A stretch of DNA of 57,791 bases, from NCBI GenBank assembly GCA_049516635.1, contig JBEKSX010000008.1, positions 1-57,791 on the forward strand, written 5' to 3'. Each line of letters opens with the position of its first letter. Position 1 is the first letter of the stretch. This document shows, piece by piece, positions 20,983 to 53,986 of the stretch. A model generated the notes under the pieces. That model made no database searches and had not been told where the DNA came from. It worked only from the letters and a program-made list of their open reading frames with translations. Made by a program: the position numbers and the translations under genes. Origin of the DNA: Ignavibacteria bacterium. GTDB taxonomy: Bacteria; Bacteroidota; Ignavibacteria; Tepidaquicellales; OLB5.

Positions 20983-21027
20983 GTGAGGCTGGGAGGTCTC
21001 GAACCTCCGACCCTCTGCTTAAAAGGC
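20983..21027 (-). repeat. distal att direct repeat: copy of the 3' 44 nt of tRNA-Lys plus 1 nt
   Basis: 43/45 identical to 53914..53958. The mismatches (20993, 21007) are the paired positions of the T-stem (GGAGG/CCTCC versus GCAGG/CCTGC). The repeat ends 2 nt into the 5' strand of the anticodon stem. Confidence 0.8.
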
Positions 21028-21107
21028 GTGTAATGTGGTAATAACTGTTCAAAATACGGCACTTTTCGCAAGATTATTGCACTAATTTACACCAGTAATT
21101 ACCTTCT

Positions 21108-21130
21108 TAGTCACTAAAATAGTCACTAAA
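21108..21130 (+). promoter_or_regulatory. tandem TAGTCACTAAA repeats (candidate integrase arm-type sites, distal arm)
   Basis: TAGTCACTAAA at 21108 and 21120 (12-bp register). The same tandem arrangement occurs at 53857/53869. Confidence 0.55.
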
Positions 21131-21489
21131 AAAGAGAACGGCAATTTTTAAAAATGAACGATTATTAGCTCTACTACTCCATACAGTTTCTCGGCGAGTA
21201 GATTTTCTTTCGGTACAAATATAATATATAAAACTGAAAATTGTTATGTCACTAAGATTTACATCACAAAAATGACATGACCGTAAATGAATAAAAGACG
21301 TACAAAGTCTAACTTAATTTCCAAAATGTATCGGATGAGAAATGACTAACATAAAGGCTGGGGTAATATACTTAGAAGAATAACAAGGGAAATTTAGAAT
21401 TGGGATTTACCACTTGGATTCCTGTTTACTAAAGATTCTATAGAAGTCTACTATATTAGGCAGTACTGCTATAATACAATTGATAATTA

Positions 21490-23301
21490 TTAGTCACTAG
21501 TTATTGGATTTCCAAAGAAACCTCTAATTTTCTCCTTTTGGGTAGTATAAATTCCATCAACAATCGTAGCTGTAATTAATTCTGCATCAATATTTTCAAC
21601 ATCAGCAAAGGATACTGTAATTGAGACATTATTATTATTGGGAGCATTTGGATCACAAACCAAGATTTTATATCTTTGATCTGATTTCGGAATCGGATGA
21701 TAACCTATAGCAATTACCTGATGATCGATATTCCAGTCGGTACCTCCTTCTCCACTAATTAGCACAATCGTAATCGGGCTGCCACCATCAAGCGTCGGCC
21801 TAATTACATTATTCCATTCTTGCACAGTTGCCCAGCCAACACTGTGTTCTGGATTCCACCAACTTCCCTGGTCAGGCCGCAGATTGTGCCATTCGTAAAT
21901 CTTTGACCATACTCCATCGAGAAGAGGTGTTGGTACTCCTAGTGGATTGAGTGGCGTTCCGATTGAGTCACATTGTCGACTCCAAATCTCGCTTAATAAA
22001 GGATCCCCATTACTTGGTAATGGAGTGTCCCTTGCAATTGGGATATCTTTGAAAAATCTATCCAAAGCGGTCCAACACCAGCCACCGCAATAACCCCATG
22101 GGTTATCAAAAGGCCAGCCATGAACTGAAGGAATAAAAGCTGTTACGACAATTTGAGCGTCCCAAATTGTTCCTGCCCCACTTTTCCCAATAACAAAGTT
22201 TCCCAAAGTATTGAGAATTGCAAAATAGTCACCTTCGCCTGGTGCTACATGAGTGTCCCATATTGGAGCGCCGTCTTCTTCCCTATATATTACGAAATTA
22301 CCATCTCCTTGCATTATTGCATAGTAATGTAGAGGGATAGGTGCAGGAGTTGGTGTGGTATTCAAGCAATGTTCGAGTGCTTTCTTTGCATTCGACAAGT
22401 CAGATTGGACCCTTCGTATCTCTGCAAGTAGTGCCGTTTTAGAACCGTGACCATGCTGGAGATCATCTTGTAATGAATGTAATTCTGATTCGATTGAATT
22501 GACTAAGTTTCTCTCGGCTTCACAAGGCGTAGATTGTGGCTGCTGTGGCGTATATGATGTTGGCTGATTAGAATATGTACACCAAACTGCACCATTGTCA
22601 GGAGATGGCAATTCACCACGATAAATGACTAAGTTGGCATCTTCTTGCATTACTAGACAATATTTCCCATTGCATGAGACTAAATACTCTCCAGCTGCTA
22701 GCCGATTAACACTTTCTAGACGGTATTTCCTGTTTATCCAAAGACAATTGCTAAAATCATTTATATCTGTTCCCCTATATACACCAAAAGTTCCATCATC
22801 ATGAATCGCAACAAAATAATCAGAAGTTGCTTCATGTACACCAATATCCCAGGTAAACGCTGGATGGGACCAACCACTTTCCAATATAAATGTTGCAAAA
22901 TCACCATCATTCTGCATAATAGCATAGGAATCACCTTCAGTGAATATTCTGCCTGTTGACCAGTAAACACTATGGCTGTCGGAAGGTCCTGATCCTTCGT
23001 AGAGAACAAGGTTACCGTCATGTTGCATTATCAAATAATATCTTGCTGACGGAGAAACTATATATTCTCCACCATTTAGGCGTTCATTGGTTTTGAGAGT
23101 ACTTTTTTGTGGTTGAGGTGGATGTGGAGATTTCAAACAATTTTCAAGTGCTTTTTTTGCATTTGCTAGCTCAGATTGTACTCTTCTTATCTCAGCAAGT
23201 AATGCTGTTTTAGAACCATGGCCATGATGGAGATCATCTTGTAATGAATGTAATTCAGATTCGAGAGAACTGACTAAGTTTCTTTCAGCTTCGCAAGGCA
23301 T
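21490..23301 (-). CDS. multidomain protein: 2x Cys-bracketed helical module + bulb-type (B-) lectin subdomains + C-terminal papain-like Cys/His/Asp domain
   Basis: 603-aa ORF with no signal peptide. Residues 2-56 and 259-313 are near-identical (PCEAERNLV...HGHGSKTALLAEIRRVQS...AKKALE.CL). QxDxNxVxY motifs: MQHDGNLVLY, MQEDANLVIY, MQGDGNFVIY, plus degenerate copies. C-terminal GYCGGWCW ... DHQVIAIGY ... LVCDPN. Confidence 0.7.
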   Translation of the reverse strand: MPCEAERNLVSSLESELHSLQDDLHHGHGSKTALLAEIRRVQSELANAKKALENCLKSPHPPQPQKSTLKTNERLNGGEYIVSPSARYYLIMQHDGNLVLYEGSGPSDSHSVYWSTGRIFTEGDSYAIMQNDGDFATFILESGWSHPAFTWDIGVHEATSDYFVAIHDDGTFGVYRGTDINDFSNCLWINRKYRLESVNRLAAGEYLVSCNGKYCLVMQEDANLVIYRGELPSPDNGAVWCTYSNQPTSYTPQQPQSTPCEAERNLVNSIESELHSLQDDLQHGHGSKTALLAEIRRVQSDLSNAKKALEHCLNTTPTPAPIPLHYYAIMQGDGNFVIYREEDGAPIWDTHVAPGEGDYFAILNTLGNFVIGKSGAGTIWDAQIVVTAFIPSVHGWPFDNPWGYCGGWCWTALDRFFKDIPIARDTPLPSNGDPLLSEIWSRQCDSIGTPLNPLGVPTPLLDGVWSKIYEWHNLRPDQGSWWNPEHSVGWATVQEWNNVIRPTLDGGSPITIVLISGEGGTDWNIDHQVIAIGYHPIPKSDQRYKILVCDPNAPNNNNVSITVSFADVENIDAELITATIVDGIYTTQKEKIRGFFGNPITSD

Positions 23302-23376
23302 AATAGCCTCCCTTCTTTTTTCTTTTAAGAGATTTCTAATTTAGATTACTTTGATTTTTACTGGAATGTAACAAAG

Positions 23377-23865
23377 CTAATTCTTTATTTTCTTATCAAT
23401 ATTTTGCATGCTATCTAGGCTTTTGAATTTCTTATACATAATTTCTTTTGTACTATTAATTTTTACTATATTTGCATCTATTTTTCCATTAGATACTTTG
23501 ATTGAGTCTAAGGTGTTTAATAAATTATCTTTATTATCGATTTGTTTTGTGGATTTTAATTTTGTTTCAACATAAATAAGTCGTTTTGAAATATTATCTT
23601 TCTCCTTTTTAATTTCATCAACTTGTGTAATGGTTGAATCATAATTACTTTTTAATTCGTTATATGTTTCTATGGTGATTTCACCTTTAGATGAAAGCGT
23701 AACTTTGTGCAAGATTGGTAACATGAGTAGAACAATACCAACTACCATGATCCAACCTCCATGAGGAGGTAATTTTTTATTCTTATAGAGCAAAATTAAA
23801 ATAAGTACTAAGAATGCTGTACCTAATATTATTCCAATTATAAATGTTATATTTTGAGGTTCCAT
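23377..23865 (-). CDS. small membrane protein (2 TM helices) with coiled-coil tail
   Basis: 162-aa ORF. FIIGIILGTAFLVLILILLY and IMVVGIVLLMLPIL hydrophobic helices, then a Lys/Asn/Ile-rich heptad-like region. Confidence 0.55.
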   Translation of the reverse strand: MEPQNITFIIGIILGTAFLVLILILLYKNKKLPPHGGWIMVVGIVLLMLPILHKVTLSSKGEITIETYNELKSNYDSTITQVDEIKKEKDNISKRLIYVETKLKSTKQIDNKDNLLNTLDSIKVSNGKIDANIVKINSTKEIMYKKFKSLDSMQNIDKKIKN

Positions 23866-23926
23866 AAGTTTAATTAAATAAAATTTTAAAAATATGAATC
23901 TATTTTAATATTATATTCTATATTTT

Positions 23927-25864
23927 TTAATGTCGTTCCCACTGTATATCTAAATTACCATAAATAGGAAATGGCTGATCATTATCCACAATAATTTGTG
24001 GCTGAGATGGATTATTATTTGATTTATCAAGGTAAAATGCGTTCCAATCTGCAAAATAATAACTTGTTGCTTCATAACTTGTTGTTTCAATTCCACCAGC
24101 GATGATATCAAGAGAAGCAAAACCTAAAAGAAGTGAATTTGTAATTGCTTCTACAAGTGGTATCAAATCTTTATTATAACCAGCAGTCAATTCTTCTTTT
24201 GATATGTGTCTTGAAATTGATCTAGGTAAATTGGCTTGATTATTCTCATCATTAGTTGGATCCATATTTATAATAACAGTAATTGCTTCTAATGAAGTAT
24301 ATTCAAATAAGATTCTTACTGTGGAACGAGTAACAAACCAATAACTGACTTTCAACTTATCATTCTTAAACATGCGGTTAGATGGTGGTCTTAAAGTTAT
24401 TTTTACAGTATATTGTTGAGAAAATGAGGGTATAATTATCTTAGGGTCAGCCTTTATTTGATAAGGAATAAGAGAAAAAGAAGCAAACGTAAGTTCCTTT
24501 TCAAAATGTTTAAAAAGAGGATCTTCTCCTTCCCAAAGGTAACCTTCTTTCATTATTTGACTTACCAGATATGGGTTTGATATGAATCTAGAAACTGTTG
24601 CATCATTATTCCATTTTGATGCATGCACGATTAAAAGAGGGGGGTGAATTTCAGTATGAAAATCATCATGTCCAGCATCAACAATCCAACGCCCGAGTAC
24701 AGCAACCCGATCTCCGAATTTCACTCTATAATCTCCTGGAACCAAATTGGAATCAGTTTCGACACCAAGTACCCCTTTGATTGGCATACCTAATTCCTTT
24801 TTTGCAGTATCAATTGCATCTCTAAACTCTCCATCAACATTCGGTCCATTATCAAAATTGTTTGGAGCTAAAATCCATTCAAATCTTTCGTCCGGTACGA
24901 TAAAGAACTCCCAATCAAAACCGAATGGATGAGTAAACGGCATATCATTTCCGGAGATTTTGGGATTAACAGCGTAACCTGAAATTCCTACACATGAACC
25001 ATCCTCTTTCCCGTTATCCAAAACCGGCATCCATTCAAATCTTGGGTCTTCACCACTTAACAATGTATTTTTATTGCAAAAGTTTTTAGCCCAATCGGGA
25101 TGATAATAAGAGTTTGTAAAGTCAGGAATCTGCGGATTATTATATTTCATTGTCAGAATTGGTGGGGCAGGATAAGTAAAGCTATTTATTCCGCTATACT
25201 CTTTTGGGACTCCATCAATAGTTAACGAAATACCCCAATTGTAGTTACCATGGTAAGGCAGATTCTTAAGGGAATATTTTTTTGAAGAATACAAACTGCC
25301 ATTTTCGTATGTGTAATCTTTCGTGCTATCTTCATAGCAGATACTGTTATCCCCTGAAAAAGATAAAATTAAATGGAATGTTACTTTCAAGGGATCATAT
25401 AAGGCAGATGATGTTGCAGGGGGAAGTTTTGGATAACCAGGGTATTTGGGTTTCAAATATACAGTGCGGCTATATGAACCACCAGGATCATGCCATTTCC
25501 ATTTGAAAATTAAAATAGTATCAGAACCAGACTCGATATCTCCCACAGTAAATCCATCCAGAGGATAAAGTAATTGAATCATTTGAGTTTTAATCATTTT
25601 GCCTTTTGCTACCAAATATTTTCTTCCCCAAAATTCCTTTAATAATTTAGCCTTTTCTTCTTTCATAATTTTGAAAGTATCAAGTAAGTTTTGATCATAA
25701 TAATCGTAAACCTGTTTTGATTCGTAGGTGTAGAGATTGGGATTTTTGAAGAGGTTTAAATAGCGGAATAATTGTTGATCAGGAGATGGTTTAATGTGAG
25801 AATTTAGTAATGAGCAAAAAAATAAAATGATAAAGATTGAAAGTGAAATGAATATCTTTTTCAT
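23927..25864 (-). CDS. secreted protein of unknown function
   Basis: 645-aa ORF with signal peptide (IFISLSIFIILFFCSLLNS). No domain recognised. First gene of the three-gene same-strand cluster. Confidence 0.6.
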   Translation of the reverse strand: MKKIFISLSIFIILFFCSLLNSHIKPSPDQQLFRYLNLFKNPNLYTYESKQVYDYYDQNLLDTFKIMKEEKAKLLKEFWGRKYLVAKGKMIKTQMIQLLYPLDGFTVGDIESGSDTILIFKWKWHDPGGSYSRTVYLKPKYPGYPKLPPATSSALYDPLKVTFHLILSFSGDNSICYEDSTKDYTYENGSLYSSKKYSLKNLPYHGNYNWGISLTIDGVPKEYSGINSFTYPAPPILTMKYNNPQIPDFTNSYYHPDWAKNFCNKNTLLSGEDPRFEWMPVLDNGKEDGSCVGISGYAVNPKISGNDMPFTHPFGFDWEFFIVPDERFEWILAPNNFDNGPNVDGEFRDAIDTAKKELGMPIKGVLGVETDSNLVPGDYRVKFGDRVAVLGRWIVDAGHDDFHTEIHPPLLIVHASKWNNDATVSRFISNPYLVSQIMKEGYLWEGEDPLFKHFEKELTFASFSLIPYQIKADPKIIIPSFSQQYTVKITLRPPSNRMFKNDKLKVSYWFVTRSTVRILFEYTSLEAITVIINMDPTNDENNQANLPRSISRHISKEELTAGYNKDLIPLVEAITNSLLLGFASLDIIAGGIETTSYEATSYYFADWNAFYLDKSNNNPSQPQIIVDNDQPFPIYGNLDIQWERH

Positions 25865-26414
25865 GTTGCAACCATTTTTTAAAATTATTTTAAAATATAT
25901 AGACTTTTAAAAACAATAAGATTAATTAGATTAGGACCAGTGAGTTGTATGGATATTTAAGAATAGAGAGACTCACTCAATATATGATGTGAGAATGAAA
26001 AAATACTGAGTGTAGAAGTAGAGGATGTATTTTATGGAGTGATTATAGAATATTCATTCTCTCTTTAATAATATTTAAAAGAATAAACTATAAAGCTGAA
26101 TATGATAGTCTATCCAGCCCGAAGAGCCATGAATTTCTATTAGTTGGTGTACTATAATATAATATTACATTTTTAGTATGTCAAGTGTTTTTAATATTAT
26201 GTATTTATAATTGTAAGTAACGAGATTTATATTGGCATATAAATTGTTTAATTGTTAAAAGGAATCTTTGTTTCTTATCGAATTACTAGATATTTAGATG
26301 GTTTTAGTTACTCTTTAATTATTTTTATTGTGTCTATAGGTTAACTTTATATAAACTTTCTTAAAGAAACTGGGTTTCAAATCTTTAAAAATATGTATTG
26401 ACTCTATCCATATA

Positions 26415-26436
26415 TACCCATATATTTATATGGGTA
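26415..26436. promoter_or_regulatory. 22-bp palindrome TACCCATATA-TT-TATATGGGTA (candidate LexA operator) over the dinB promoter
   Basis: Perfect 10-bp inverted arms. Sigma70-like TTGACT (26398-26403), 17-nt spacer, TATATT (26421-26426) inside the palindrome. Confidence 0.65.
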
Positions 26437-27740
26437 TTATGCAAAAGATAAGCTCATCTTTTTTCATCACGAGGGGAGGGGGTAAGGGCAGGAATATATT
26501 CAAGAGAGTTAGATTCATGCCGATTTACTCCTTTCCGCATCATAAAGATCTGAATTATAAGATAGAAAAACATGACAGAAGGTACTTCTTGCACCTCGAT
26601 TTTGATGCTTTTTTCGCTCAGGTTGAACAACGGGATAATCCAAAGCTGAGGGGTAAACCGGTTTCAGTAGGAGGGAACGGGGGTATTAAGGGCATAGTTA
26701 TGACCTGTTCCTATGAAGCCAGGGCTTTGGGAGTTAAGACGGGAATGTCAGTTTTCGAGGCTAAACAGATTTGCCCGGAACTAATTTCCCTGCCCTGCTA
26801 CGGACCCAAATACGAGGCTATCCTATTAAATATTACTGAAGCGTTCATAAAGCTGGTACCGGAAGATTGTATAGAACAATACAGCATAGATGAATGTTTT
26901 CTTGAACTAACCCCGGTTGTAAAGGATTATTTTGATGCAATTAGATTTGCGCTAAAAATAAAGAAATTAGTTAAAAGAATGGAGAATCTCACAGTATCTG
27001 TGGGTTTGTCCTTTAATAAGTCATACGCTAAACTTGCTACTAAGTTTCGCAAACCTGACGGATTATCTGTTATCAGAGAAGAAAACAGACCGGACATTTA
27101 TACGCTTCCTGCAGTAAAATTGTGGGGAGTAGGCAATATGATTGAAAAACGTCTCGCTATGCTTGGAATATTTACAATTGGTGACTTGGCAAACTGCAAT
27201 TTCCACGCTGTCCATAAGGAGTTTGGCATTAACGGAGTAATACTAAGAAAGATTGCAAGAGGAGAGGATACAAGCACCATAGCAACGGGAAAACAAAAAA
27301 GAATAGAAAAATCTTTTAATCATCACCATACTCTTACAGAACCAATCTACAAAAACGAAGATGCAACAGATGAGATTAGGAGGATCGGAGAGTATATGTG
27401 CAGGAAAATGAGATATAAGAATCTTGCAGGTAAACACCTTTTTCTCACATTAAGGTTTGATGATCTTGGTTTTATTTCAGAGGACATCAAGTTATTCAGC
27501 CCAACCAATGACGAAAGAGATATCTTTGAAGCTGCTATGCATCTTTATAAAAGATTTCCAGAACCAGAACCCTTTCACAAGGTCAGGATGTTCGGGATGA
27601 CAATATTTGATCTTCATCCGGTTACAGGATACAATCTCGATCTTTTCAGGAAACAGCCAATTCTGCCTTACAAGGAATTGGATTATCTGAAAGAAAAGTA
27701 TGGGGAAAATATAATAAGGGTAGGTCTTACCAGATTATAA
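26430..27740 (+). CDS. dinB: Y-family DNA polymerase IV
   Basis: LHLDFDAFFAQVEQRDNPKLRGKPVSVGG and SIDECFLE motifs. The start is ambiguous: ATG 26430 lies in the palindrome, and the alternative ATG 26517 (MPIYSF) gives a more typical N-terminus. Confidence 0.85.
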   Translation: MGIMQKISSSFFITRGGGKGRNIFKRVRFMPIYSFPHHKDLNYKIEKHDRRYFLHLDFDAFFAQVEQRDNPKLRGKPVSVGGNGGIKGIVMTCSYEARALGVKTGMSVFEAKQICPELISLPCYGPKYEAILLNITEAFIKLVPEDCIEQYSIDECFLELTPVVKDYFDAIRFALKIKKLVKRMENLTVSVGLSFNKSYAKLATKFRKPDGLSVIREENRPDIYTLPAVKLWGVGNMIEKRLAMLGIFTIGDLANCNFHAVHKEFGINGVILRKIARGEDTSTIATGKQKRIEKSFNHHHTLTEPIYKNEDATDEIRRIGEYMCRKMRYKNLAGKHLFLTLRFDDLGFISEDIKLFSPTNDERDIFEAAMHLYKRFPEPEPFHKVRMFGMTIFDLHPVTGYNLDLFRKQPILPYKELDYLKEKYGENIIRVGLTRL

Positions 27741-28361
27741 TATCTGGTATTTACGCCGGAGTTCAATCACTTTACCCAGGATTTGAAATACTTTTCCCGA
27801 GATAGGTTTAAACTTGACATTAGCAGGTTCAAGATATGCACCGGTTTTCCGTTTCCTCAGCGTTTTTACCGTAGCTTCATCGTCAAGTAAAGCTATTATT
27901 ATCTCGCCATCCTCACAATCATCCTGCTTCTTAACAATTACAATATCGTCATCATATATCCCCGCATCCTTCATACTGCTTCCTTTTACCTTAAGTGCAA
28001 AGATATCCCGTAACGATTTCTTTTTCCTTTCATAAGCTATATATCCTTGAATATTATCCTCTGCGAATATTGGTTCTCCCGCAGCAACACTCCCGTAAAG
28101 CGGAATGACCTCTATGTTCGATTTAAACCGTGATATTTCCAAATTCTCATTCTGATTTACTACCTTTATCCCTCTTGCTTTATCCGGTGATTTTTCCAGA
28201 TACCCCTTTCGTATTAATGCAGATATGTGGTCCTGTACTGTACCAACGATGATATTAAATTTTACTGCTATTTCAAGATAGGTGGGAGGAAAACTATTTG
28301 AACTTATGAATTTCTGGATATACTCAAGTATCTTTTTTTGTTTAGGTGGTAAATTACCCAT
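27735..28361 (-). CDS. lexA: LexA repressor (autocleaving S24 peptidase)
   Basis: 208 aa. N-terminal wHTH (YLEIAVKFNIIVGTVQDHISALIRKGYLEK). Ala-Gly cleavage site (SVAAGEP). Ser nucleophile (KGSSMKDAGI) and Lys (ATVKTLRK). 6-nt tail-to-tail overlap with dinB. Confidence 0.9.
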   Translation of the reverse strand: MGNLPPKQKKILEYIQKFISSNSFPPTYLEIAVKFNIIVGTVQDHISALIRKGYLEKSPDKARGIKVVNQNENLEISRFKSNIEVIPLYGSVAAGEPIFAEDNIQGYIAYERKKKSLRDIFALKVKGSSMKDAGIYDDDIVIVKKQDDCEDGEIIIALLDDEATVKTLRKRKTGAYLEPANVKFKPISGKVFQILGKVIELRRKYQIL

Positions 28362-28375
28362 ATATTAATATGGTA
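28355..28375. promoter_or_regulatory. degenerate copy of the palindrome overlapping the lexA start codon
   Basis: TACCCATATATTAATATGGTA has the same register as the 22-bp palindrome with 3 changes. The lexA ATG (28361..28359) lies inside it. Confidence 0.55.
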
Positions 28376-28441
28376 TATAATGTTTCAAAAATCAAGAGAT
28401 TTGTATAATGCAGAAGATAGGCTATTGCAATATTTTATTAT

Positions 28442-28463
28442 TACCCATATATTTATATGGGTA
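28442..28463. promoter_or_regulatory. second perfect copy of TACCCATATATTTATATGGGTA over the promoter of the lexA-divergent small gene
   Basis: Identical 22-mer to 26415..26436. TTGCAA (28425-28430), 17-nt spacer, TATATT (28448-28453). Confidence 0.65.
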
Positions 28464-28475
28464 TTTATCACCACA

Positions 28476-28736
28476 ATGTATACGCAAAACCAGGTATTTG
28501 AACCGGTAGAAGTAATTGCTTATTTCCATGAACTAAAAATAGAAATTGTTAAATTCAAGTGGAACAACAAAGTCTATAAGGTCAACCAGATGATGAATAC
28601 CTGGAAGATACCCGATGGTGACGGATTCTCATCTCATTTCGTGGTTCTATGTAAAGAAAACGAACTCTTGTGTGAACTATCTTTTAACCATACCGATCTG
28701 AAATGGGAATTAGTGCAGTATGATAGTTTGAGTTGA
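28476..28736 (+). CDS. small soluble protein divergent from lexA (candidate SOS-regulated gene)
   Basis: The ORF track gives 28380..28736, but the first 32 codons read through the operator/promoter. ATG at 28476 (MYTQNQVF...) gives 86 aa. No TM segment and no family recognised. Confidence 0.55.
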   Translation: MYTQNQVFEPVEVIAYFHELKIEIVKFKWNNKVYKVNQMMNTWKIPDGDGFSSHFVVLCKENELLCELSFNHTDLKWELVQYDSLS

Positions 28737-28895
28737 TATGATTATGCAATTCATTTAAAGTCATACAATATTCCATCTGCTTAAACAGCGTATTGTTTAT
28801 GTCTGATTATTGCGTTTCCTATAAATTATTAAATTTTTTCTGACTTAATAAGTATTAATTTGATACTTAGCAAGAAATGCTATTACAATGATATT

Positions 28896-43069: not shown

Positions 43070-43073
43070 ATCA

Positions 43074-43835: not shown

Positions 43836-43955
43836 TTCTATGCCGGCGAATTACCTATTCAGAGAATACATAATAATGAAATCAAGCAGTATCTTTACAG
43901 CAATTTCTCAAATTATGACCTGACCTTATTTTTAACTTACTTTAGTGATCAATAT

Positions 43956-44885: not shown

Positions 44886-45087
44886 GGGAAAAAAGTCATG
44901 ATAAGGTATCAAGGTTTTAGAGAAAAGAAAAGTTAACCAAATGATGAATACCTGGAAAATACCTGATGGTTATTAATTCTCATCTCATTTCGTGGTTCTG
45001 TGTAAAGAAAACGAACTGTTATGTGAACTATCTTTTGACCGCACCGACCAGAAGTGGGAATTGGTGCAGTACGATAATGTGAGTTGA
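44886..45087 (+). pseudogene. decayed copy of the 3' half of the lexA-divergent small gene
   Basis: Aligns with ~28565..28736 and has a ~25-nt insertion. There is an in-frame TAA (ggt tat TAA) where the intact gene has DGDGF. Similarity continues past the stop. Confidence 0.7.
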
Positions 45088-45765: not shown

Positions 45766-47454
45766 ATGAAAAAACAGAATTTTTTACTTAATTCGATTTT
45801 TATCATCATTATCTATACAATACTAATAACCAGCATAAAAGCACAAGCGCTTCCTTATGCCCGTTCAATTAATAATTATCAAACATCTTATACATCTGGC
45901 AATGATGCATGGTCTACAGCTGCAAGTGAAAAGTTTGTTCACGCTGTCTGGAGCGATGATGGTGATGTAAATCGTGAAATTTACTATAATCAAGATCCGA
46001 TCGGCAACGGAATAGCTGCTATAGACAGTGTTTCACCTAATAAAAATAAGCTGAATGTTCCTTTGACTTCGGATATGAAAGTATACTTCAACCAGAGTAT
46101 GAACCCTGTAACTCTAGACAGTAACGGGATAATATTTTACGGTTCAATGACAGGGAGGAAGCGTGGAACGATCACCTACAACTCGGGAAACAACTCAGTT
46201 CAGATCGTACCCTATACACCATTTAAATACGGAGAAGAGCTGGTAAGCACAACTTTGGATTCGTTGATAAGGACAGGTTCGGGAAGTTCAATTTATCCAT
46301 ATATCTGGAGCTTTATGACCACAGCCAGAGCTTCAAATTTAATATTTAATTCTACCGGCACGGTTGGAGTTGGAAATTATCCCTGGGGAATAGCCGCAGG
46401 TGATTTCGACGGAGACGGCGATCTGGACCTTGCCGTTGCTAACGAAGGTTCAAATAACGTTTCAATATTAAAGAATAACGGGACAGGCACCTTCATCGTA
46501 TCATCTACAGTTGGAGTTGGAGGTAATCCATATGGAATAACAGCAGGTGATTTCGATGGAGACGGCGATCTGGACCTTGCCGTTGCTGACGGCAATTCAA
46601 ATAACGTTTCAATATTAAAGAATAACGGGACAGGCACCTTCATCGTATCATCTACAGTCGGAGTTGGAAGTTATCCATTTGCAATAACCTCAGGTGATCT
46701 CGACGGAGACGGATATTTAGATCTTGCCGTTGCTAACGAAGTTTCAGGCAACGTTTCAATATTAAAGAATAACGGGACAGGCACCTTCACCCTATCATCT
46801 ACAGTCGGAGTTGGAAGTACTCCATTTGGAATAACCGCAGGTGATCTCGACGGTGACGGCGATCTGGACCTTGCCGTTGCTAACGAAGGTTCAAATAACA
46901 TTTCAATATTAAAGAATAACGGGACAGGCACCTTCATCGTATCATCTACAGTCGGAGTTGGAAGTAATCCATTTGCAATAACCTCAGGTGATCTCGACGG
47001 TGACGGCGATCTGGACCTTGCCGTTGTTAACAACGGTTCAAATAACGTTTCAATATTAAAGAATAACGGGACAGGCACCTTCACCGTATCATCTACAGCC
47101 GGAGTTGGAAGTAATCCATATTTAATAACCGCAGGTGATTTCGACGGAGACGGCGATCTGGACCTCGCCGTACCCAATTACAATTCAAATAACGTTTCAA
47201 TATTAAAGAATAACGGGACAGGCACCTTCACCGTATCATCTACAGCCGGAACTGGAAATAATCCGTTGGGAATAGCCACAGGGGATTTTAATAACGATGG
47301 CGTCTTAGACCTTGCCACGGCTAATGGTAATACTAATAACGTATATATCTTAATAAACCTGACTCCCCCTATACTCTTAAGCCCTGCTAATGGCTCTACA
47401 GGTAATTTGAGTGATTCCAGCTTGCTACGGATTCACTGTTTAGTAATCTCATAA
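45766..47454 (+). CDS. FG-GAP/VCBS-repeat protein; probable N-terminal fragment of a disrupted giant adhesin gene
   Basis: 562 aa with signal peptide. Ig-like segment, then seven 49-aa (147-nt) units (GVGSNPFAITSGDLDGDGDLDLAVANEGSNNVSILKNNGTGTF). The ORF ends inside the first Fn3-like unit. Confidence 0.75.
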   Translation: MKKQNFLLNSIFIIIIYTILITSIKAQALPYARSINNYQTSYTSGNDAWSTAASEKFVHAVWSDDGDVNREIYYNQDPIGNGIAAIDSVSPNKNKLNVPLTSDMKVYFNQSMNPVTLDSNGIIFYGSMTGRKRGTITYNSGNNSVQIVPYTPFKYGEELVSTTLDSLIRTGSGSSIYPYIWSFMTTARASNLIFNSTGTVGVGNYPWGIAAGDFDGDGDLDLAVANEGSNNVSILKNNGTGTFIVSSTVGVGGNPYGITAGDFDGDGDLDLAVADGNSNNVSILKNNGTGTFIVSSTVGVGSYPFAITSGDLDGDGYLDLAVANEVSGNVSILKNNGTGTFTLSSTVGVGSTPFGITAGDLDGDGDLDLAVANEGSNNISILKNNGTGTFIVSSTVGVGSNPFAITSGDLDGDGDLDLAVVNNGSNNVSILKNNGTGTFTVSSTAGVGSNPYLITAGDFDGDGDLDLAVPNYNSNNVSILKNNGTGTFTVSSTAGTGNNPLGIATGDFNNDGVLDLATANGNTNNVYILINLTPPILLSPANGSTGNLSDSSLLRIHCLVIS

Positions 47455-50204
47455 TGAATGATTCCACATTACTTGGTACCGATTCGGTTAAATCAGTATC
47501 TGGTTTAAATGCATTGACCTGGTACTATTGGCGTTTAAACTCGAAATCAGCTAACGGAACAAGCCTTTGGTCGGGAACCTGGAAATTTAAGACACTGGGT
47601 TCCCCTACACAGGTAAGTCTTTTCTCTCCTCCTAACAATTCAGTAAATCAACCTGTGAATATTACTTTTAATTGGTTCAAAGCTGTTGATCAGTTCTTAA
47701 ATAAAATTAATCTCGATAAAGAGAATAGATCCCTTGGACCTCAAAACGTATCGAAGTACTGGTTTGAGCTGTCATCAGATTCGTTGTTCACCAATATTAT
47801 AGTGAGAGATTCAACTCTTACGGATACTATAAATTTTGTTAGCGGATTAAACAACCTAACAAACTACTATTGGAGGGTGAGAGCAAGGAACGAGGTCGGC
47901 TGGGGAAGTTATTCCGCCTGGTTCAAATTCACCACAATTATAAGCGCGCCTGCAGCTCCTGTGCTCGTAAGTCCGACTGATGGTTCACTCGGGCAGAATG
48001 TGTCACTTACGCTCGTATGGAACAAATTACCGACTGCAGCATCTTATAGGGTTCAGGTTGCAATGGACTCACTTTTCACAGGTTTGATTGTTAATGATTC
48101 GACATTAACGGATTCCACAAGAGCAATATCGGGACTTAATCCATTAACTTACTACTGGTGGAGAGTGAACGCAAAGAACATCGGAGGAACAAGCTCATAC
48201 TCGGTAGTGTGGAAGTTTAAAACGATAGGATTCCCCGTTCAGGTTACGCTCCTTAATCCTGCAAACAATGCGGTAAATCAACCAACGTCCATTACGTTCC
48301 TGTGGAGCAGAGCAACTGAACCAACGCAATCGTTCACGCAGCCATTAATGCCAATATCCAAAGAACCGCTTTCAAGAATATTAGTAAGCAAAAATGTTTC
48401 TGGTAAACTAAGTGATGGCGTCGATGCAGTGAGTAATTACTGGTTCGACATGGTAACGGATACGGTATCATTGGCAAACTTAGTTAGGGATACGACTCTG
48501 AACGATACTGCAAAATCATTAAGCGGATTAAGCAACCTGACGAGCTACTATTGGAGAGTAAAAGCAAAGGGTCAGATAGGCTGGGGAAATTATTCTGTCT
48601 GGTTCAAATTTACTACAATTATCAGTACACCTTCAGCACCTTTGCTCGTAAGTCCCGCTAATGGTTCGCTAGGGCAGAATTTGTCACTTACTCTGGTGTG
48701 GATTAAATTACCGAGTGCAGCATCCTATAGGGTGCAGGTTGCAACAGATTCACTGTTTGCAGGGTTGATCGTTAATGATTCGACTCTAACGGATTCCATA
48801 AAAGCAATATCCGGGCTTAATCCATTGACATACTATTGGTGGAGAGTAAATGCAAAGAACATCGGCGGAACAAGCTCTTACTCAGCCGTGTGGAAATTCA
48901 AGACGATCGGGCTTCCCGGACAGGTAACTCTGCTCAATCCCCCGAACAATGCTGCTAACCAGCCAATATCTATAAATTTCAGTTGGAGCAGGGCTGTAGA
49001 ACAAACGTCACCATTTGAAAGTATAAAAAAATCCGGTGAATACAGTGATGGTCTCGATGCCGTAAGCAATTACTGGTTCGATATGGTAACTGATACAGTA
49101 TCATTAGTAAATTTGGTAAGAGATACGACCTTAACCGATACTACAAAAACAGTAAGCGGTTTAAGCTATCTGACAAGCTATTACTGGAGAGTGAAAGCGA
49201 AAGGCAGCTTAGGCTGGGGAAATTATTCTATCTGGTTCAAATTTACCACTATAATCAGTACACCTGCAGCACCTGTGCTCGTAAGCCCTCCAAATGGTGC
49301 CGCAGGTCAACCAGTATCATTAACATTGATCTGGCATCCTTCACCTGACGCTACTTCGTATAGGGTGCAGTTATCAGCTGATTCGCTTTTCGGCAGCTTT
49401 TTCGTTAATGATTCCACTGTGACAGATACAACCAGAGCTGTTTCAGGGTTATCCTACCTCACTAAATATTACTGGAAAGTTAATGCGAAGAACATCGGCG
49501 GAACAAGCAATTTCTCAGCAATATGGAATTTCACAACCGGACCATTACCTCCGGCATTGGTTAACTTGAAAGTCATCCCTGGCGGTTTCTACAACACAGG
49601 AATCGCTCAGCTCAATATGAAAGATACCATTCGAATGATACTTGTTGATTCTGCAAATTGTACTATTGTTGATTCTGCAAGAGCACTGATCGACTCTCTT
49701 ACATTTTCAGCAATACCCACCCCAAGTTTCGCAAATGTTAATACAGGAAAATATTATATACTTATCTTCCACAGGAATCATTTACCTATAGCGAGCAGGT
49801 ATACACAGCAGGTAACCAGGGGCTCAACGGTAAGCTATGATTTCACTGCTGACTCATCTATGACATATGGATTCAACATGATAAAGGTATCAACATCACC
49901 CGTGCTGTGGGGAATGATACCTGCGGATGCGAACCAGGATGAATACATTGATGCTTTGGACCAGGTGATCTGGATAAATCAGAATGGAGAAAATGGAATC
50001 TTTTCCGCTGACTTCAACGGAGATACATATGTCGATGCTCTCGATCAGTTCATATGGATTTTATACAACGGCAATAGCGCTTATCTGCCGTGCGGATTCA
50101 TACCATCCAATCCGGTGATGCAGAAGAAGAATATTGATAGCAGTATTTACTGGATGAAAGTGATCCGGCAAAATCAGGTTAAACAAAATAATTCGAATAA
50201 ATAG
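47454..50204 (+). CDS. Fn3-like repeat protein with dockerin-like Ca-binding pair; probable continuation of 45766..47454
   Basis: 916 aa with no signal peptide. Begins mid-repeat (NDSTLLGTDSVKSVSGLNALTWYYWRLN). About three ~650-nt tandem super-repeats. DANQDEYIDALDQVIW and DFNGDTYVDALDQFIW near the C-terminus. Confidence 0.75.
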   Translation: MNDSTLLGTDSVKSVSGLNALTWYYWRLNSKSANGTSLWSGTWKFKTLGSPTQVSLFSPPNNSVNQPVNITFNWFKAVDQFLNKINLDKENRSLGPQNVSKYWFELSSDSLFTNIIVRDSTLTDTINFVSGLNNLTNYYWRVRARNEVGWGSYSAWFKFTTIISAPAAPVLVSPTDGSLGQNVSLTLVWNKLPTAASYRVQVAMDSLFTGLIVNDSTLTDSTRAISGLNPLTYYWWRVNAKNIGGTSSYSVVWKFKTIGFPVQVTLLNPANNAVNQPTSITFLWSRATEPTQSFTQPLMPISKEPLSRILVSKNVSGKLSDGVDAVSNYWFDMVTDTVSLANLVRDTTLNDTAKSLSGLSNLTSYYWRVKAKGQIGWGNYSVWFKFTTIISTPSAPLLVSPANGSLGQNLSLTLVWIKLPSAASYRVQVATDSLFAGLIVNDSTLTDSIKAISGLNPLTYYWWRVNAKNIGGTSSYSAVWKFKTIGLPGQVTLLNPPNNAANQPISINFSWSRAVEQTSPFESIKKSGEYSDGLDAVSNYWFDMVTDTVSLVNLVRDTTLTDTTKTVSGLSYLTSYYWRVKAKGSLGWGNYSIWFKFTTIISTPAAPVLVSPPNGAAGQPVSLTLIWHPSPDATSYRVQLSADSLFGSFFVNDSTVTDTTRAVSGLSYLTKYYWKVNAKNIGGTSNFSAIWNFTTGPLPPALVNLKVIPGGFYNTGIAQLNMKDTIRMILVDSANCTIVDSARALIDSLTFSAIPTPSFANVNTGKYYILIFHRNHLPIASRYTQQVTRGSTVSYDFTADSSMTYGFNMIKVSTSPVLWGMIPADANQDEYIDALDQVIWINQNGENGIFSADFNGDTYVDALDQFIWILYNGNSAYLPCGFIPSNPVMQKKNIDSSIYWMKVIRQNQVKQNNSNK

Positions 50205-50216
50205 AATAAAAAAATA

Positions 50217-50246
50217 GGGTACTTCCCAGGAATGCGGGAAGTACCC
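50217..50246. terminator. 11-bp perfect hairpin just after the stop codon at 50204
   Basis: GGGTACTTCCC-8 nt-GGGAAGTACCC, with an A-run upstream. Confidence 0.4.
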
Positions 50247-50259
50247 CAACAATTATTAA

Positions 50260-50497
50260 TCACAACCTCCCAATCCTTTCAACCCGACAATCACGATCAA
50301 GTATGATATACCGAAGCCACGTCATGTTAATATAACATTATTTAATCTACTCGGCAGAGGTACTCATGAACGAACGAAAAGAGCGAGGCAATTATGGCAT
50401 AATGTGAACTGCCACAAATTATGCAAGCGGGGCTTATTTCTATAAGCTTGAAACGGAGAGTTACACCGATATCAAGAAAATAATATTATTGAAATAA
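50260..50497 (+). pseudogene. frameshifted remnant of a T9SS C-terminal sorting domain
   Basis: Reads PNPFNPTITIKYDIPKPRHVNITLFNLLGR in one frame, NERKERGNYGIM in a second, and ASGAYFYKLETESYTDIKKIILLK* (50423..50497) in a third. Confidence 0.75.
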
Positions 50498-50718
50498 CAT
50501 AATAGATTTTCCAAAGAACTTAGCAATGTATTCAATTTGGATTTTTGTTGAATCTAGATTATAAGAAGCTATTACCTAAATGTTAGCTCAGGAGAGGTTG
50601 AAGTCTAAGCAACCGATAACACAGTTATTTGTAAGAGTGGAGGTATAAAATTTAACCCTCTGCTTTTTGAGCAGATGAAATGTTTGAAATGAAGTAAAAT
50701 AATATGTATTGACTCTAA

Positions 50719-51015
50719 TTATACAATTCTTGTTTTGTAAAACTTAAGTTGCTTCTTTAATCGCCATATCCACAAAATCAATCCAACAGTCAAAATTGGC
50801 CATAGAAAACAGAAAATTAGAACATTAATCTGTTCGTATGTCATATTGAAAGTTTCAGCAAGGGAATGTAGTATTTGAACGCAAAGAGCAAACATTAACT
50901 CCGGGTTTCTGATACATCTTAGCAATAGAAGAGGATCAACGCAGAATGTAAAGAATAATACGAAAATTAGAATGATGCCTAATAGGACCATAGTTTGGGA
51001 TTTCTTTATTTTCAT
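50719..51015 (-). CDS. small integral membrane protein
   Basis: 98 aa with three hydrophobic segments, 55 nt downstream of the OmpA-vWA gene on the same strand. Confidence 0.45.
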   Translation of the reverse strand: MKIKKSQTMVLLGIILIFVLFFTFCVDPLLLLRCIRNPELMFALCVQILHSLAETFNMTYEQINVLIFCFLWPILTVGLILWIWRLKKQLKFYKTRIV

Positions 51016-51070
51016 TTTTTATAAACTTGAGAATTTAAGGTTCAAATTATTTATCTTATCAATTCCAACT

Positions 51071-52507
51071 TCACTCCATCACATAATCCTTATAAATCGT
51101 TCTAATTCTTCCTTTGACGTTAACCCGAACTACAGCAGTCACGTTTGTGCCTTTCGGAGGGAGATTCTCACCGGTCCATAGGATGCTTACCTGGTAACTT
51201 TTCATGATTTGTTTTAGAATTGTAGAATATATTATCGGTAAATCTGATGGTTTATTTGCCCACCAATAAAAACCACCCGTTCTTGCAGCAATTTCAAATA
51301 GATCCGCTTCCCCTACTCCGTTGAAACCGAAGGGTATTGAATGCTTGTATTCTTCCAGTAATCCAACCGTATAGACTTTAATGCCCCTGGATTCACTTAT
51401 CCGGTAAATAGAATCTTTATTAATATTGCCAGATGAATTTTCTTCACCATCGGATAAGGCAATGACGGTTTTCATAATTGTTGGATTACAATTGTAAATT
51501 GTATCACTCAGAGCTGTATAAACGACCCTGAAAAGAGCTGTTCCTGTTCTTGGATAACATTTCTCTGTTATAGCTTTGCTTAATAGTTCTTTAGTTCTTG
51601 TATATGGACGAACAAGATCTATAGCTTTGCCAAATTTAATTATTCTTGCAAGATGCTTACTGTCCATATCGGTGATAAATGTTTGAACAGCCTTTTCCAT
51701 TGATAAAATCTTTTGCGTTTTCGGGGCATCCAAACTGAAATTATCATCATACATGCTGGGACTGTAATCCATTACAAATGTGAAAGCAATTTTCTTCTTT
51801 TCATCTATTGAAATGAATCTCACTGTACCCTGCGCTGAATCTTTTTTGTTCTCTGAATCCCATTTTAAAGTAGCCTGAACATCTTCTTCTTTTATACCTT
51901 CCTCAGGTTCGCCAGTTGTATCACGCACAGAGAGGTCACCTTGCAACTCATTCTTTGAAACCTGTTTCAATGTGGAATTTAGATAAGTTACATCTTTCTC
52001 TTCCGGTTTAGTTTTTTGATTAATGAATGAGAACTCCACTCTTCTGTTAAAAGCTCGATCATAATCCGTCAGATTTTCATTCAGAGGTTCGCTCTTCCCT
52101 TTTCCTTCCACAAGAATGTTTTCCGGATTGCATCCATTCGACACTAGGTACTCTTTCACAGAAAATGCACGTTTAACCGATAGGTCTATATTAAAGTCTT
52201 CGCTTCCGATATTATCTGTATGACCGGTAAGCAGAACTTTTAAATCTGGACTTGACTTCATTTCATCCGCAAGTTTATCCAGGATATAAAAACACTCAAT
52301 CTTAAGTTCAGAGCTTGCAAAATCAAAATAGATCATTTGATTGGTATTCAACGAATCCAATAAAGTACAAGGCGAAACTTCTGAGCTAGTGAGCGAAGAG
52401 AATAGAATGGCAGTAACTAGAATAAGAATGAACAAGATTATACTATGCAAACTATTTAATTCAGCTCGATTAGTTTGCGATTTTTGTTGAATTTTTCTAA
52501 AAAACAT
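51071..52507 (-). CDS. membrane-anchored OmpA-like (peptidoglycan-binding) + von Willebrand factor A domain protein
   Basis: 478 aa with an N-terminal TM helix. OmpA_C-like FDFASSELK...LTGHTDNIGSEDFNIDLSVKRA...NRRVEF. vWA MIDAS FVMDYSPSM and ALSDGEENSSG. Confidence 0.75.
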   Translation of the reverse strand: MFFRKIQQKSQTNRAELNSLHSIILFILILVTAILFSSLTSSEVSPCTLLDSLNTNQMIYFDFASSELKIECFYILDKLADEMKSSPDLKVLLTGHTDNIGSEDFNIDLSVKRAFSVKEYLVSNGCNPENILVEGKGKSEPLNENLTDYDRAFNRRVEFSFINQKTKPEEKDVTYLNSTLKQVSKNELQGDLSVRDTTGEPEEGIKEEDVQATLKWDSENKKDSAQGTVRFISIDEKKKIAFTFVMDYSPSMYDDNFSLDAPKTQKILSMEKAVQTFITDMDSKHLARIIKFGKAIDLVRPYTRTKELLSKAITEKCYPRTGTALFRVVYTALSDTIYNCNPTIMKTVIALSDGEENSSGNINKDSIYRISESRGIKVYTVGLLEEYKHSIPFGFNGVGEADLFEIAARTGGFYWWANKPSDLPIIYSTILKQIMKSYQVSILWTGENLPPKGTNVTAVVRVNVKGRIRTIYKDYVME

Positions 52508-52760
52508 ACTGATTCCCTCCTATTTAAAGCATTTCTAAGTTAAAGGTAAAAGGTTTCAGATGAGTATCATAACGTGATACTAATTAATAAAAATATAAAA
52601 TAAATCAATAATACATTTCCATCAACTAAAATTGTATTAGTCCTAATATGATTAATCCTGACTATAAGATTAAGTTAAAATTTAACTTGATTGTTTTTCA
52701 TATTCTTAATTCCTATAAAATATAGTAAATAAATCAAATATTGCATATCCTTGCTTGATA

Positions 52761-53810
52761 CTAATATTCTATTTTCACCTTATTTACTGCTTCTCTCAAA
52801 TCTTCTGTTTCGATGTGAACGTACCCCATAGTTGTATTTAAGTTACTGTGACCGGCCAGCTGTTTTGCATAGTTGATGTTTACCCCGTTTCTGATGAGGT
52901 TTGTGATGAACGTGTGCCTCAAACAGTGAAAATGATACTTTTCAGGTAACCCCGCTAGCCTAAGGTAATTCTTGAATTTCTTTGAAACATAGTTCCCATT
53001 AAGTTTGATACCCTTAACACTGACAAATAGGTATCTCTCGGGTTCTGATAGCTCTATTACGTTTCCTGAGCGGTTTAGAATTGATTTTAAAAGCTCGTTC
53101 AGATGATCTGAGATTGGTATGAACCTTATTCTTCCGGTCTTGATTTTGAAATCAGGTTTATTTCTAATGGTAAGGATCATTTCCTGGAAATCAACATCTT
53201 TGAATTGGATATTCATTATCTCATTCAATCTGCAGCCGGTCAGAAGAGCGAAAATTATCAGCTTTTTGAAACGGTTATCTTCAATTAAATCCAATACCCT
53301 CTTCAATTCATCATCACCAAAACTTAATTTCTCTTTCTGCGGTATTGAAAATTGTTTAATGTACTGCATAGGATTGGATTCTAGATATCTCATTCTTACA
53401 GCATAATTGAAAACTGCTTTCAGGGTCCTGATCTCGATATTTACCGAGGTCTTACTAACCTCTCTGACTCTGACATTCTTATAATTCTCAAAGTCTTTGG
53501 GATTGTACAAATGAATCTCACGATTCCCCTGAATCCTCAACAGATTATTAACCGCGTTTCCGTAAATTATCAGTGTTTTGGAGGTGAAATTTGATTCAGC
53601 AAACTCGCAAATCTCTTTAGCAAGATTAGTAAGAAACCATCTGGTTTGCTTAATTCTGTCTACACTCGATCTGTTTCGAGCGAAATTCCAAAGGAACCTT
53701 TCGGCTTCCTTTTTAGTCCTTTTTCCTGTTGAGATTTTTGTTCTTTTACCCGTGGAGGGGTTGACGAAATACAGGTCATAGAGACCTTTATACCCTTTTG
53801 AGATGAACAT
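52761..53810 (-). CDS. tyrosine recombinase / phage-type integrase
   Basis: 349 aa. LLTGCRLNEI (Arg), HCLRHTFITNLIRNG (H-x-x-R), LAGHSNLNTTMGYVH (His/Tyr). 104 nt from the tRNA-Lys 3' end. Confidence 0.9.
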   Translation of the reverse strand: MFISKGYKGLYDLYFVNPSTGKRTKISTGKRTKKEAERFLWNFARNRSSVDRIKQTRWFLTNLAKEICEFAESNFTSKTLIIYGNAVNNLLRIQGNREIHLYNPKDFENYKNVRVREVSKTSVNIEIRTLKAVFNYAVRMRYLESNPMQYIKQFSIPQKEKLSFGDDELKRVLDLIEDNRFKKLIIFALLTGCRLNEIMNIQFKDVDFQEMILTIRNKPDFKIKTGRIRFIPISDHLNELLKSILNRSGNVIELSEPERYLFVSVKGIKLNGNYVSKKFKNYLRLAGLPEKYHFHCLRHTFITNLIRNGVNINYAKQLAGHSNLNTTMGYVHIETEDLREAVNKVKIEY

Positions 53811-53842
53811 TAGATTTTCCTTTCTAATGCCGTTACCTATGA

Positions 53843-53879
53843 TTTAGTGAGGGTACTAGTCACTAAATAAGTCACTAAA
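53843..53879 (+). promoter_or_regulatory. TAGTCACTAAA repeats (candidate integrase arm-type sites, int-proximal arm)
   Basis: TTTAGTGA (inverted, 53843-53850), TAGTCACTAAA (53857-53867), AAGTCACTAAA (53869-53879). Confidence 0.55.
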
Positions 53880-53914
53880 GCCTTATGGGAGGGTCAAAAA
53901 ACCGCAAAAATGAG

Positions 53915-53986
53915 TGAGGCTGGCAGGTCTCGAACCTGCGACCCTCTGCTTAAAAGGCAGATGCTCTACCACTGAGCTACAGCCCC
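53915..53986 (-). tRNA. tRNA-Lys (anticodon UUU)
   Basis: Manual fold. Acceptor is GGGGCTG/CAGCCTC (one G-U). D arm is GCTC-AGTGGTA-GAGC. Anticodon arm is TCTGC-CTTTTAA-GCAGA. Variable loop is GGGTC. T arm is GCAGG-TTCGAGA-CCTGC. Discriminator is A. CCA is not encoded. Confidence 0.9.

Follow-up and report, generated by a model that had tools for sequence, protein, structure and literature searches.

What placed a second, partial copy of a tRNA-Lys gene 33 kb away from the intact one, and does the DNA between the two belong to a single mobile element? The question arises in a 57,791-nt stretch of DNA (hereafter, the window), which constitutes the entire contig C8 (JBEKSX010000008.1) of a 2.9-Mb metagenome-assembled genome (MAG) of an Ignavibacteria bacterium, assembled into 136 contigs (GCA_049516635.1); most of the public sequencing runs in which window sequence occurs come from peat metagenomes. 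Tyrosine integrases use tRNA genes as targets; a gene entered in this way is made whole again by the island, and the displaced fragment of the original gene marks the island's far end. Such an event had been proposed for this locus from its letters alone (the original prediction). The analysis described below leads us to conclude that the segment 21028-53913 is very probably one integrase-mediated cargo island, as opposed to a prophage or a conjugative element.

The window contains a single tRNA gene, tRNA-Lys(UUU), on the minus strand, which ARAGORN places at 53914-53986 and Rfam at 53915-53986 (75.2 bits against a cut-off of 29), the latter being the interval originally predicted. It is the sole tRNA-Lys(UUU) copy among the 50 tRNAs of the genome, so that keeping the gene intact matters; by both programs it is complete and foldable. 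Its positions 29-73 (53914-53958 in the intact gene) recur at 20983-21027 as a direct repeat, with 43 of the 45 positions identical. A pattern covering both variants was found twice in the window and not once in 100 shuffles, and the same two copies are the only ones across the 2.9-Mb genome. The two mismatches are tRNA positions 49 and 63, which are paired in the T-stem (GCAGG/CCTGC in the intact gene, GGAGG/CCTCC in the displaced copy), the change thus being compensated, and identity stops 2 nt inside the 5' strand of the anticodon stem. In all these respects the description of the repeat given earlier was reproduced. The longest exact stretch common to the two copies is 19 bp. The island, lying between the intact tRNA-Lys gene and the displaced 45-bp copy, measures 32.9 kb.

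The locus was then compared with those of relatives (designated here by G numbers, with contigs given as genome:contig), the nearest of which belong to the window's family but to different genera, their AtpD being at most 86% identical to that of the window. The order atpD-atpC-tRNA-Lys(UUU) was found in 21 of the 23 loci of relatives and is taken to be ancestral. Up to 20 kb beyond the tRNA gene was examined in 15 relatives (3 of the 15 regions being shortened by contig ends); these regions contained no homologue of the window integrase, and no island genes except paralogous proteins of the type IX secretion system (T9SS) and one outer-membrane protein (OMP) match of 37% identity. In G005 and G007 no integrase is present at the atpDC-tRNA-Lys locus, and the tRNA-Lys gene consists of the 5' 28 nt of the window gene followed by the displaced 45 nt, with 73 of 73 positions identical. 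The comparison with related genomes, suggested along with the original prediction, therefore bears it out: at the level of the family, G005 and G007 carry the empty site. A T-stem of the type GGAGG/CCTCC is present in 15 of the 22 tRNA-Lys genes of relatives and GCAGG/CCTGC in none of the 22, the others having GAAGG/CCTTC (5) or GGTGG/CCACC (2, both adjoining integrases); this indicates that the distal copy is the host's original and that the 3' half of the present tRNA is derived from the element. Since the distal copy has the host-type base at both variant positions, and the tRNA gene the element-type base at both, the exchange is confined to 21009-21027 and its counterpart 53940-53958. The left flank of the window contains an SBP_bac_5 gene (1100-2908). 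Its orthologue in G005 (74-76% identity) is 6.7 kb away from tRNA-Lys and is preceded by an orthologue of the small window open reading frame (ORF) 3211-3480; its orthologue in G004 is situated 3.4 kb beyond a distal repeat, on the outer side, which argues that the same chromosomal neighbourhood was involved. From the SBP gene to the att site the distance is 18 kb in the window and 3.4-6.7 kb in G004/G005.

In attachment sites of the lambda type, the attP of the element consists of a core flanked by arms with arm-type integrase sites. Both ends of the island display a comparable layout. Exact copies of AGTCACTAAA occur four times in the window, at 21109/21121 and 53858/53870, forming one tandem pair just inside each end, in a 12-bp register; the pairs had been noticed before, as had the inverted TTTAGTGA at 53843, and all were found again. 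When one mismatch was allowed, 9 matches were obtained against 4.35 expected, the five one-mismatch matches all being away from the ends. A further motif, TAGATTTTCYTT, is present exactly twice, at 21199 and 53811 (0.06 expected), and its copy at 53811 abuts the start codon of the integrase gene. The two motifs thus recur, in unchanged orientation, at either end. The distal arms (approximately 200 bp) of three islands, those of the window, G004 and G006, share 74% identity over 123-141 nt, and TAGATTTTCTTT is invariant among them; the proximal arm is 78-80% identical over 89-93 nt to its counterpart in G005:C10, G004:C41 and G006:C48. A sample of 301 genomes of the class was searched for the tandem motif, with one mismatch tolerated. 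It was detected in 5 genomes, all members of the window's own family, where they make up 5 of 15; a single match was obtained for the reversed control. A 27-nt piece of the distal arm was also considered as an element-specific site and rejected, as it looked repeated genome-wide and resembles a common promoter-like element in its -10 part. A promoter-like element of about 36 nt (GCCTTGATTTtTGCAGnTTnATATATTATATTTGTA) is strongly conserved at about 20 places, on some 20 contigs, of the window's own genome (C2:3388, C5, C7:2461, C25, C36, C51 and C55 among them), and often precedes GC-rich hairpin repeats (gtagagacgcctcg...cgaggcgtctc).

The tyrosine integrase gene lies 104 nt past the 3' end of the tRNA as drawn by Rfam, the distance originally given, or 103 nt from the ARAGORN end. 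It is co-oriented with tRNA-Lys, and the island uses the usual 3' half of the tRNA. Residues R194, K222/K224, H295-x-x-R298, H321 and Y330 are invariant in all four aligned members of the integrase clade, and the first 29 residues are almost invariant in the same alignment. Such conservation would suit an arm-binding head that has stayed matched to the arm motif, and we infer from it that the N-terminal 29 residues may bind the AGTCACTAAA sites; the N-terminal 60 residues, however, gave no Pfam match, arm-binding or other, up to E=10. Homologues of the integrase (E <= 1e-20) were found in 21 of 31 genomes, the window's own included, and the closest of them are likewise co-oriented next to a tRNA. 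More distant clade members (47-49% identity) stand head-to-head with tRNA-Ser(GCU) in G002:C6 and with tRNA-Arg(CCU) in G017:C163, which suggests that these integrate in the tRNA 5' half. Three further loci of the clade were observed. The integrase gene at G005:C10:2528-3574 is decayed by four stops, yet both tandem arm sites are kept beside tRNA-Pro. At G003:C47:21866-22038, between a clade integrase and tRNA-Pro, there are 4-5 tandem units of 52 bp, each ending in the 20 nt that abut and enter the tRNA 3' end; these may be stacked att remnants. In the window's own genome (G000:C16:9-702), an N-terminal integrase fragment of 38% identity stands at a contig end beside tRNA-Asn(GUU), and may belong to a second island broken by the assembly.

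Two relatives contain complete islands of the same kind. In G004:C41 a perfect 49-bp repeat of the 3' part of tRNA-Lys(UUU) bounds an island of 25.3 kb, and in G006:C48 a perfect 50-bp repeat bounds one of 17.7 kb in tRNA-Val. In both, a tandem GTCACTAA pair is found about 80 nt inside the distal repeat, the same distance as in the window; the interval between integrase and tRNA holds tandem motifs in G004 and one exact copy in G006. The cargo of these islands is unrelated to that of the window, the integrase being the only gene in common. That of G004 (C41:9369-34664) comprises kdpABC-kdpDE and a complete type I-B CRISPR-Cas set with a second integrase between them; that of G006 (C48:5569-23225; a 1560-aa ORF was left out of the scan) comprises a methylase/PRTase-CE/ORC-CDC6-like/Thy1 row, which looks like a defence module, a T9SS protein and a second integrase. 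Each of the second integrases was matched at 35-37% identity. The relatives support the earlier view of an integrase island bounded by a regenerated tRNA and a displaced fragment, with arm-type sites in both arms. G003:C47 (22 kb), G005:C10 (9.8 kb) and G030:C287 yielded no distal repeat; these contigs may be too short to include one. The second integrase of G006 lies just inside the distal repeat, and in G004:C41 an LTXXQ/ECF-sigma pair is found beyond tRNA-Lys, in the place of atpC.

The order of events that we propose is as follows. A circular form of the element would have carried an attP in which a copied 3' part of a tRNA-Lys(UUU) gene, 45 nt or longer, stood between two AGTCACTAAA arms, the proximal arm corresponding to 53811-53913 and the distal arm to 21028 to approximately 21260. 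The island's tyrosine integrase would have recombined this attP with the host tRNA-Lys gene inside the 19-bp stretch. In doing so the element would have supplied a new 3' half with its own compensated T-stem pair, so that the only tRNA-Lys(UUU) stayed functional, and the host's original 3' half would have been displaced by 33 kb, to serve now as the mark of the distal end. The island may still be able to excise.

The cargo was searched with Pfam and NCBIfam (21 larger island ORFs, with 17 small intergenic ORFs scanned separately), PHROGs (10 island ORFs) and PADLOC (15 cargo proteins); its genes are included in Table 1. No phage structural, conjugation, relaxase or replication families were detected by Pfam/NCBIfam in the 21 large ORFs, by Pfam in the 17 small ones or by PHROGs in its 10. 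Beyond the integrase, PHROGs returned only matches of fibronectin-III (fn3) domains to "tail" families, in a repeat protein of 916 aa, and PADLOC recognised no defence system among the 15 cargo proteins, only generic ATPase, MotB-like and TPR matches. The lectin-like protein, whose gene opens the cargo on the distal side, has 603 aa and an internally duplicated arrangement of coiled-coil and monocot-lectin-like repeats. GC content swings between 0.28 and 0.49 per kb across the cargo, and averages 0.372 in the island, 0.371 in the flanks and 0.391 in the genome. The left flank holds paralogues of cargo families (T9SS BNR proteins, DUF6600 and TPR). Part of it, 15001-21000, is itself atypical (GC 0.26-0.33; tetranucleotide distance at the 96th-97th percentile) and may be older accreted DNA.

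Table 1. Coordinates of the island, its attachment sites and its cargo in the window, with the closest integrases of relatives.
Feature	Position	Strand	Remarks
Displaced tRNA-Lys 3' part, distal att junction	20983..21027	-	tRNA positions 29-73; host-type T-stem GGAGG/CCTCC
Strand-exchange segment, 19 bp	21009..21027, paired with 53940-53958	.	deduced from variant-base positions; anticodon stem-loop and variable region
Distal arm (one attP arm), non-coding	21028..21260	.	homologous to distal ends of G004:C41 and G006:C48 islands
Tandem arm-type sites AGTCACTAAA x2, 12-bp register	21109..21130	+	third site, GTCACTAA, at 21248-21255
Second motif common to both arms, TAGATTTTCTTT	21199..21210	+	partner at 53811-53822
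Promoter-like site GTGACA-18-TATATT with TATATTTG	21223..21252	-	faces out of the island to the att core; putative function
Cargo, about 20 ORFs	21490..52507	.	Pfam, NCBIfam, PADLOC and PHROGs scans
Lectin-like repeat protein	21490-23301		weak match to putidacin L1 family, 93 bits against cut-off 275
Two proteins of unknown function, 162 and 645 aa	23377-25864		
SOS cassette (Y-family polymerase, LexA, orf118) in cargo	26416..28736	.	20-bp palindrome ACCCATATATTTATATGGGT at 26416 and 28443
DinB-type Y-family polymerase	26430-27740	+	
LexA	27735-28361	-	TIGR00498, 175 bits against cut-off 111
orf118	28380-28736	+	
Three BNR/Sortilin proteins with T9SS sorting domains, and Nramp transporter	within 28896-35365		
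DUF6600 protein, TPR protein, TonB-like outer-membrane barrel	within 36107-41991		
ABC-2 exporter pair and aquaporin	within 42272-44636		
FG-GAP and fn3 surface proteins	45766-50204		
Membrane protein, 98 aa	50719-51015		
OmpA-VWA protein	51071-52507		
Tyrosine integrase, 349 aa, intact	52761..53810	-	PF00589 4.3e-33 and SAM-like domain; reads from the tRNA into the island
Proximal attP arm, integrase-to-tRNA interval	53811..53913	.	TAGATTTTCCTT 53811-53822, inverted TTTAGTGA 53843-53850, tandem AGTCACTAAA 53858-53879
Regenerated tRNA-Lys(UUU)	53914..53986	-	proximal att copy 53914-53958; element-type T-stem GCAGG/CCTGC
G005 integrase	G005:C10		64% identity to the window's; adjoins tRNA-Pro; 4 in-frame stop codons
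G004 integrase	G004:C41		58% identity to the window's; adjoins tRNA-Lys(UUU)
G006 integrase	G006:C48		52% identity to the window's; adjoins tRNA-Val
G003 integrase	G003:C47		50% identity to the window's; adjoins tRNA-Pro

Within the cargo, dinB, lexA and orf118 form an SOS cassette that is the sole copy of these genes in the genome. Its palindrome ACCCATATATTTATATGGGT recurs with 3 mismatches at 28356, and two weak matches are found elsewhere in the genome. The three genes also occur together in G005, G004, G002 and G006, between different neighbours, with DinB proteins that are 59-65% identical. On contig C62 of the window's own genome, which is syntenic to the cassette site of G005, three other genes occupy the position, and the window LexA is up to 62% identical to proteins of the sister family as compared with 42-58% to those of its own. 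The cassette is thus itself a relocating unit, and its presence in the island is no argument against a foreign origin of the latter. Control of the integrase by the SOS response was considered as well and rejected: apart from the two weak matches elsewhere, the lexA-box-like palindrome is present only in the cassette, with none near the integrase or the arms.

The left junction is held by 17 public runs, all in the form of assembled contigs, and four of these runs were compared with the window; none of the contigs listed from them runs across the junction. Contigs of run X12 cover the left flank 11006-21003 at about 98% identity. A 686-nt contig of this run matches 20974-21027 and continues with 632 nt unlike the window; its 9 letters on the flank side are too few for bridging. 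X12 is without cover over 21672-27674, which carries no weight as an absence. The joints listed from the runs all had short sides (18-29 nt) at 90% likeness and fell in paralogous T9SS genes, and were not used. A 23-nt pattern joining flank and core had 0 matches in the metagenome scan, and the flanking TPR protein was located at 2 metagenomic loci, one of them on the wrong side, in a 1.5-kb contig, and the other a 53% relative, neither of which shows an empty site.

Several of the results weigh against a single integrated island. No excisionase was recognised in the 21 large and 17 small island ORFs or in the PHROGs scan, nor did the island ORF scans reveal replication or transfer genes. For lexA, dinB, Nramp and aquaporin the cargo contains the sole copies of the genome, and it also holds paralogues of families common in the host; these two facts make the cargo look native in content. 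In the windowed GC and tetranucleotide profiles, which had been suggested as a check, the expected boundary did not appear: tetranucleotide distance shows no step at either island end, and the atypical windows (89th-97th percentile) span 15-35 kb, straddling the left junction. The island would not be recognisable from content and composition alone. Because the nearest genomes are only other genera, the empty site of G005 and G007 is a family-level statement; among the contigs listed from the four runs there was no attP junction, no junction of the host site attB and no same-species empty site, and the contiguity of the locus comes from one MAG assembly.

Two explanations that bear on these points are compatible with the integration of an island as proposed. 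One is that the island is a fossil, which integrated in this manner and then lost the ability to excise, its repeats being only scars. The lack of an excisionase among the 21 large and 17 small ORFs and of a junction among the listed public contigs would fit such a fate, as would a composition that is fully host-like; loss of an island that holds the genome's only lexA-dinB cassette might be costly, and the G005:C10 integrase with its 4 stop codons shows that decay does occur in the clade. Against this, the window integrase is of full length with every catalytic residue present, the four arm-type sites are all exact, and neither of the att mismatches falls within the 19-bp exchange segment; moreover, a recognisable excisionase is not needed by every tyrosine integrase. 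We regard the loss of excision as possible but doubtful. An additional scenario is that the mobile unit consists only of the integrase and the two arms, and that the 31-kb cargo was gathered in several events, by tandem integrations whose inner att sites have decayed or by recombination with resident DNA. The islands of G004 and G006, each with a second integrase and two functionally separate modules, favour accretion in the clade; the cargo of the window is a patchwork of unrelated functions with a GC of 0.28-0.49 per kb, and the self-contained dinB-lexA-orf118 group appears in different contexts in four relatives. The window island, however, has a single integrase, and its interior yielded no additional copy of the core, the arm motif pair or the arm sequences; such a composite origin seems to us unlikely.

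The remaining two explanations would do away with the island altogether, and both are highly improbable. The repeat could be a pseudo-tRNA or a local duplication unrelated to the integrase, the interior being native chromosome, as its host-like composition and gene families and its single-copy, housekeeping-like genes might be read. This would leave unexplained that both ends share two motifs in the same orientation, that the distal arm is homologous to those of two islands bounded by perfect tRNA repeats, that the displaced copy has the ancestral T-stem, and that the relatives have no island genes beyond tRNA-Lys except for T9SS paralogues and the one OMP match of 37%. Alternatively, two loci of different strains or organisms could have been joined in the assembly through a common tRNA sequence. 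The source is indeed a MAG in 136 contigs from a peat metagenome, the tRNA-Lys core is common to many organisms, and many loose ends fall at 20991-21027; but an exact shared stretch of 19 bp is too short to mislead the usual assemblers, the geometry of both junctions recurs independently in G004 and G006, and runs X10 and X11 hold pieces at least 99% identical on both sides of the left junction.

Returning to the integrated island as the preferred interpretation, a more tentative proposal can be made for its lineage. The promoter-like site of the distal arm (21223-21252), which overlaps the third arm-type site, scores 10/12 in a consensus scan, and TATATTTGT is retained by each of the three distal arms. 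As the site faces the core, in the circle it would read over attP into the integrase gene. Since the number of such sites in the scan was not above that in shuffles, we can only hypothesise that a distal-arm promoter reads across attP into the integrase gene after circularisation. It is conceivable, though we hold it with little confidence, that the islands of this lineage are minimal cargo shuttles, made up of an integrase and two conserved arms, which use various tRNAs (Lys, Val, Pro) to carry payloads of 17-33 kb among related genera and whose integrase expression is tied to the state of the element through a promoter joined to the gene only in the excised circle. If this is true, the lineage has so far been seen in only one Ignavibacteria family, its payloads include CRISPR-Cas, Kdp, defence modules and a host's only LexA-DinB SOS cassette, and expression of the integrase would depend on whether the element is excised.

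The mechanism itself is ordinary and already well understood as a route of bacterial gene gain. What is added here are exact coordinates for an island in an uncultured peat bacterium, together with the identification of the element-derived half of its rebuilt tRNA, and a small integrase clade whose tandem AGTCACTAAA arm motif can be used to map more islands in this Ignavibacteria family. The cargo shows which genes are exchanged: surface and secreted proteins, transporters and the SOS cassette here, and CRISPR-Cas, Kdp and a defence-like module in the relatives. That the genome's only lexA-dinB pair resides on an island is a modest curiosity. A literature search for integrase-borne tRNA genomic islands in Ignavibacteria found no related paper.

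With respect to known systems, the island has the defining structural features of a tRNA-gene (tDNA) genomic island and, in its gene content, lacks those of a prophage, of an integrative and conjugative or mobilisable element, and of a tycheposon. No capsid, terminase, portal, tail or lysis genes were found (Pfam, 21 ORFs; PHROGs, 10), and no Pfam family of relaxase, coupling, type IV secretion or mobilisation proteins, such as NBU-like elements would have, in the 21 large and 17 small ORFs. Its attP resembles that of lambda in having repeated short sites in both arms, direct and inverted and tens of bp from the core, and in being served by an integrase with an extra, highly conserved N-terminal segment. 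It differs in that the N-terminal 60 residues of this integrase are without a Pfam arm-binding domain, that no Xis or phage genes were found, and that binding to the arms is predicted from sequence.

The tycheposons of Prochlorococcus, in the portion of their description drawn on here, have an inward-facing tyrosine recombinase beside a tRNA and a partial tRNA at the other end; they carry adaptation or defence cargo without conjugation or capsid genes, their integrase clade is split by target tRNA, and they are defined by shared hallmark genes that include an optional replication module, with cargo of up to 10 kbp or more (bioRxiv 10.1101/2020.12.28.424599). On that account the layout and mode are the same as in our island: an inward integrase at a tRNA, a partial tRNA copy, cargo, and no conjugation or capsid genes. 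In contrast, no hallmark or primase/helicase module was found here, the only polymerase being a DinB-type repair enzyme, and whole islands measure 17-33 kb as compared with cargo of up to 10 kbp or more. The likeness would therefore be a resemblance in mode of action and not membership, the two being set apart by gene content and not by integrase lineage, as far as that portion allows them to be compared. The closest match is with the islands mapped by the Islander principle, in which, as given in the part of that account used here, islands in tRNA and tmRNA genes are located through the regenerated gene and the displaced fragment (PMC4383910). No essential difference from such islands is apparent from that part; what is particular to the present case is the host, an uncultured peat bacterium, and a AGTCACTAAA clade that, in the sample of 301 class genomes, was detected in no family but its own. 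Shared with them, within the same limits, are the tyrosine integrase beside an intact tRNA gene, the displaced 3' direct repeat at the far end, the restoration of the gene by the island and a crossover in the region of the anticodon arm.

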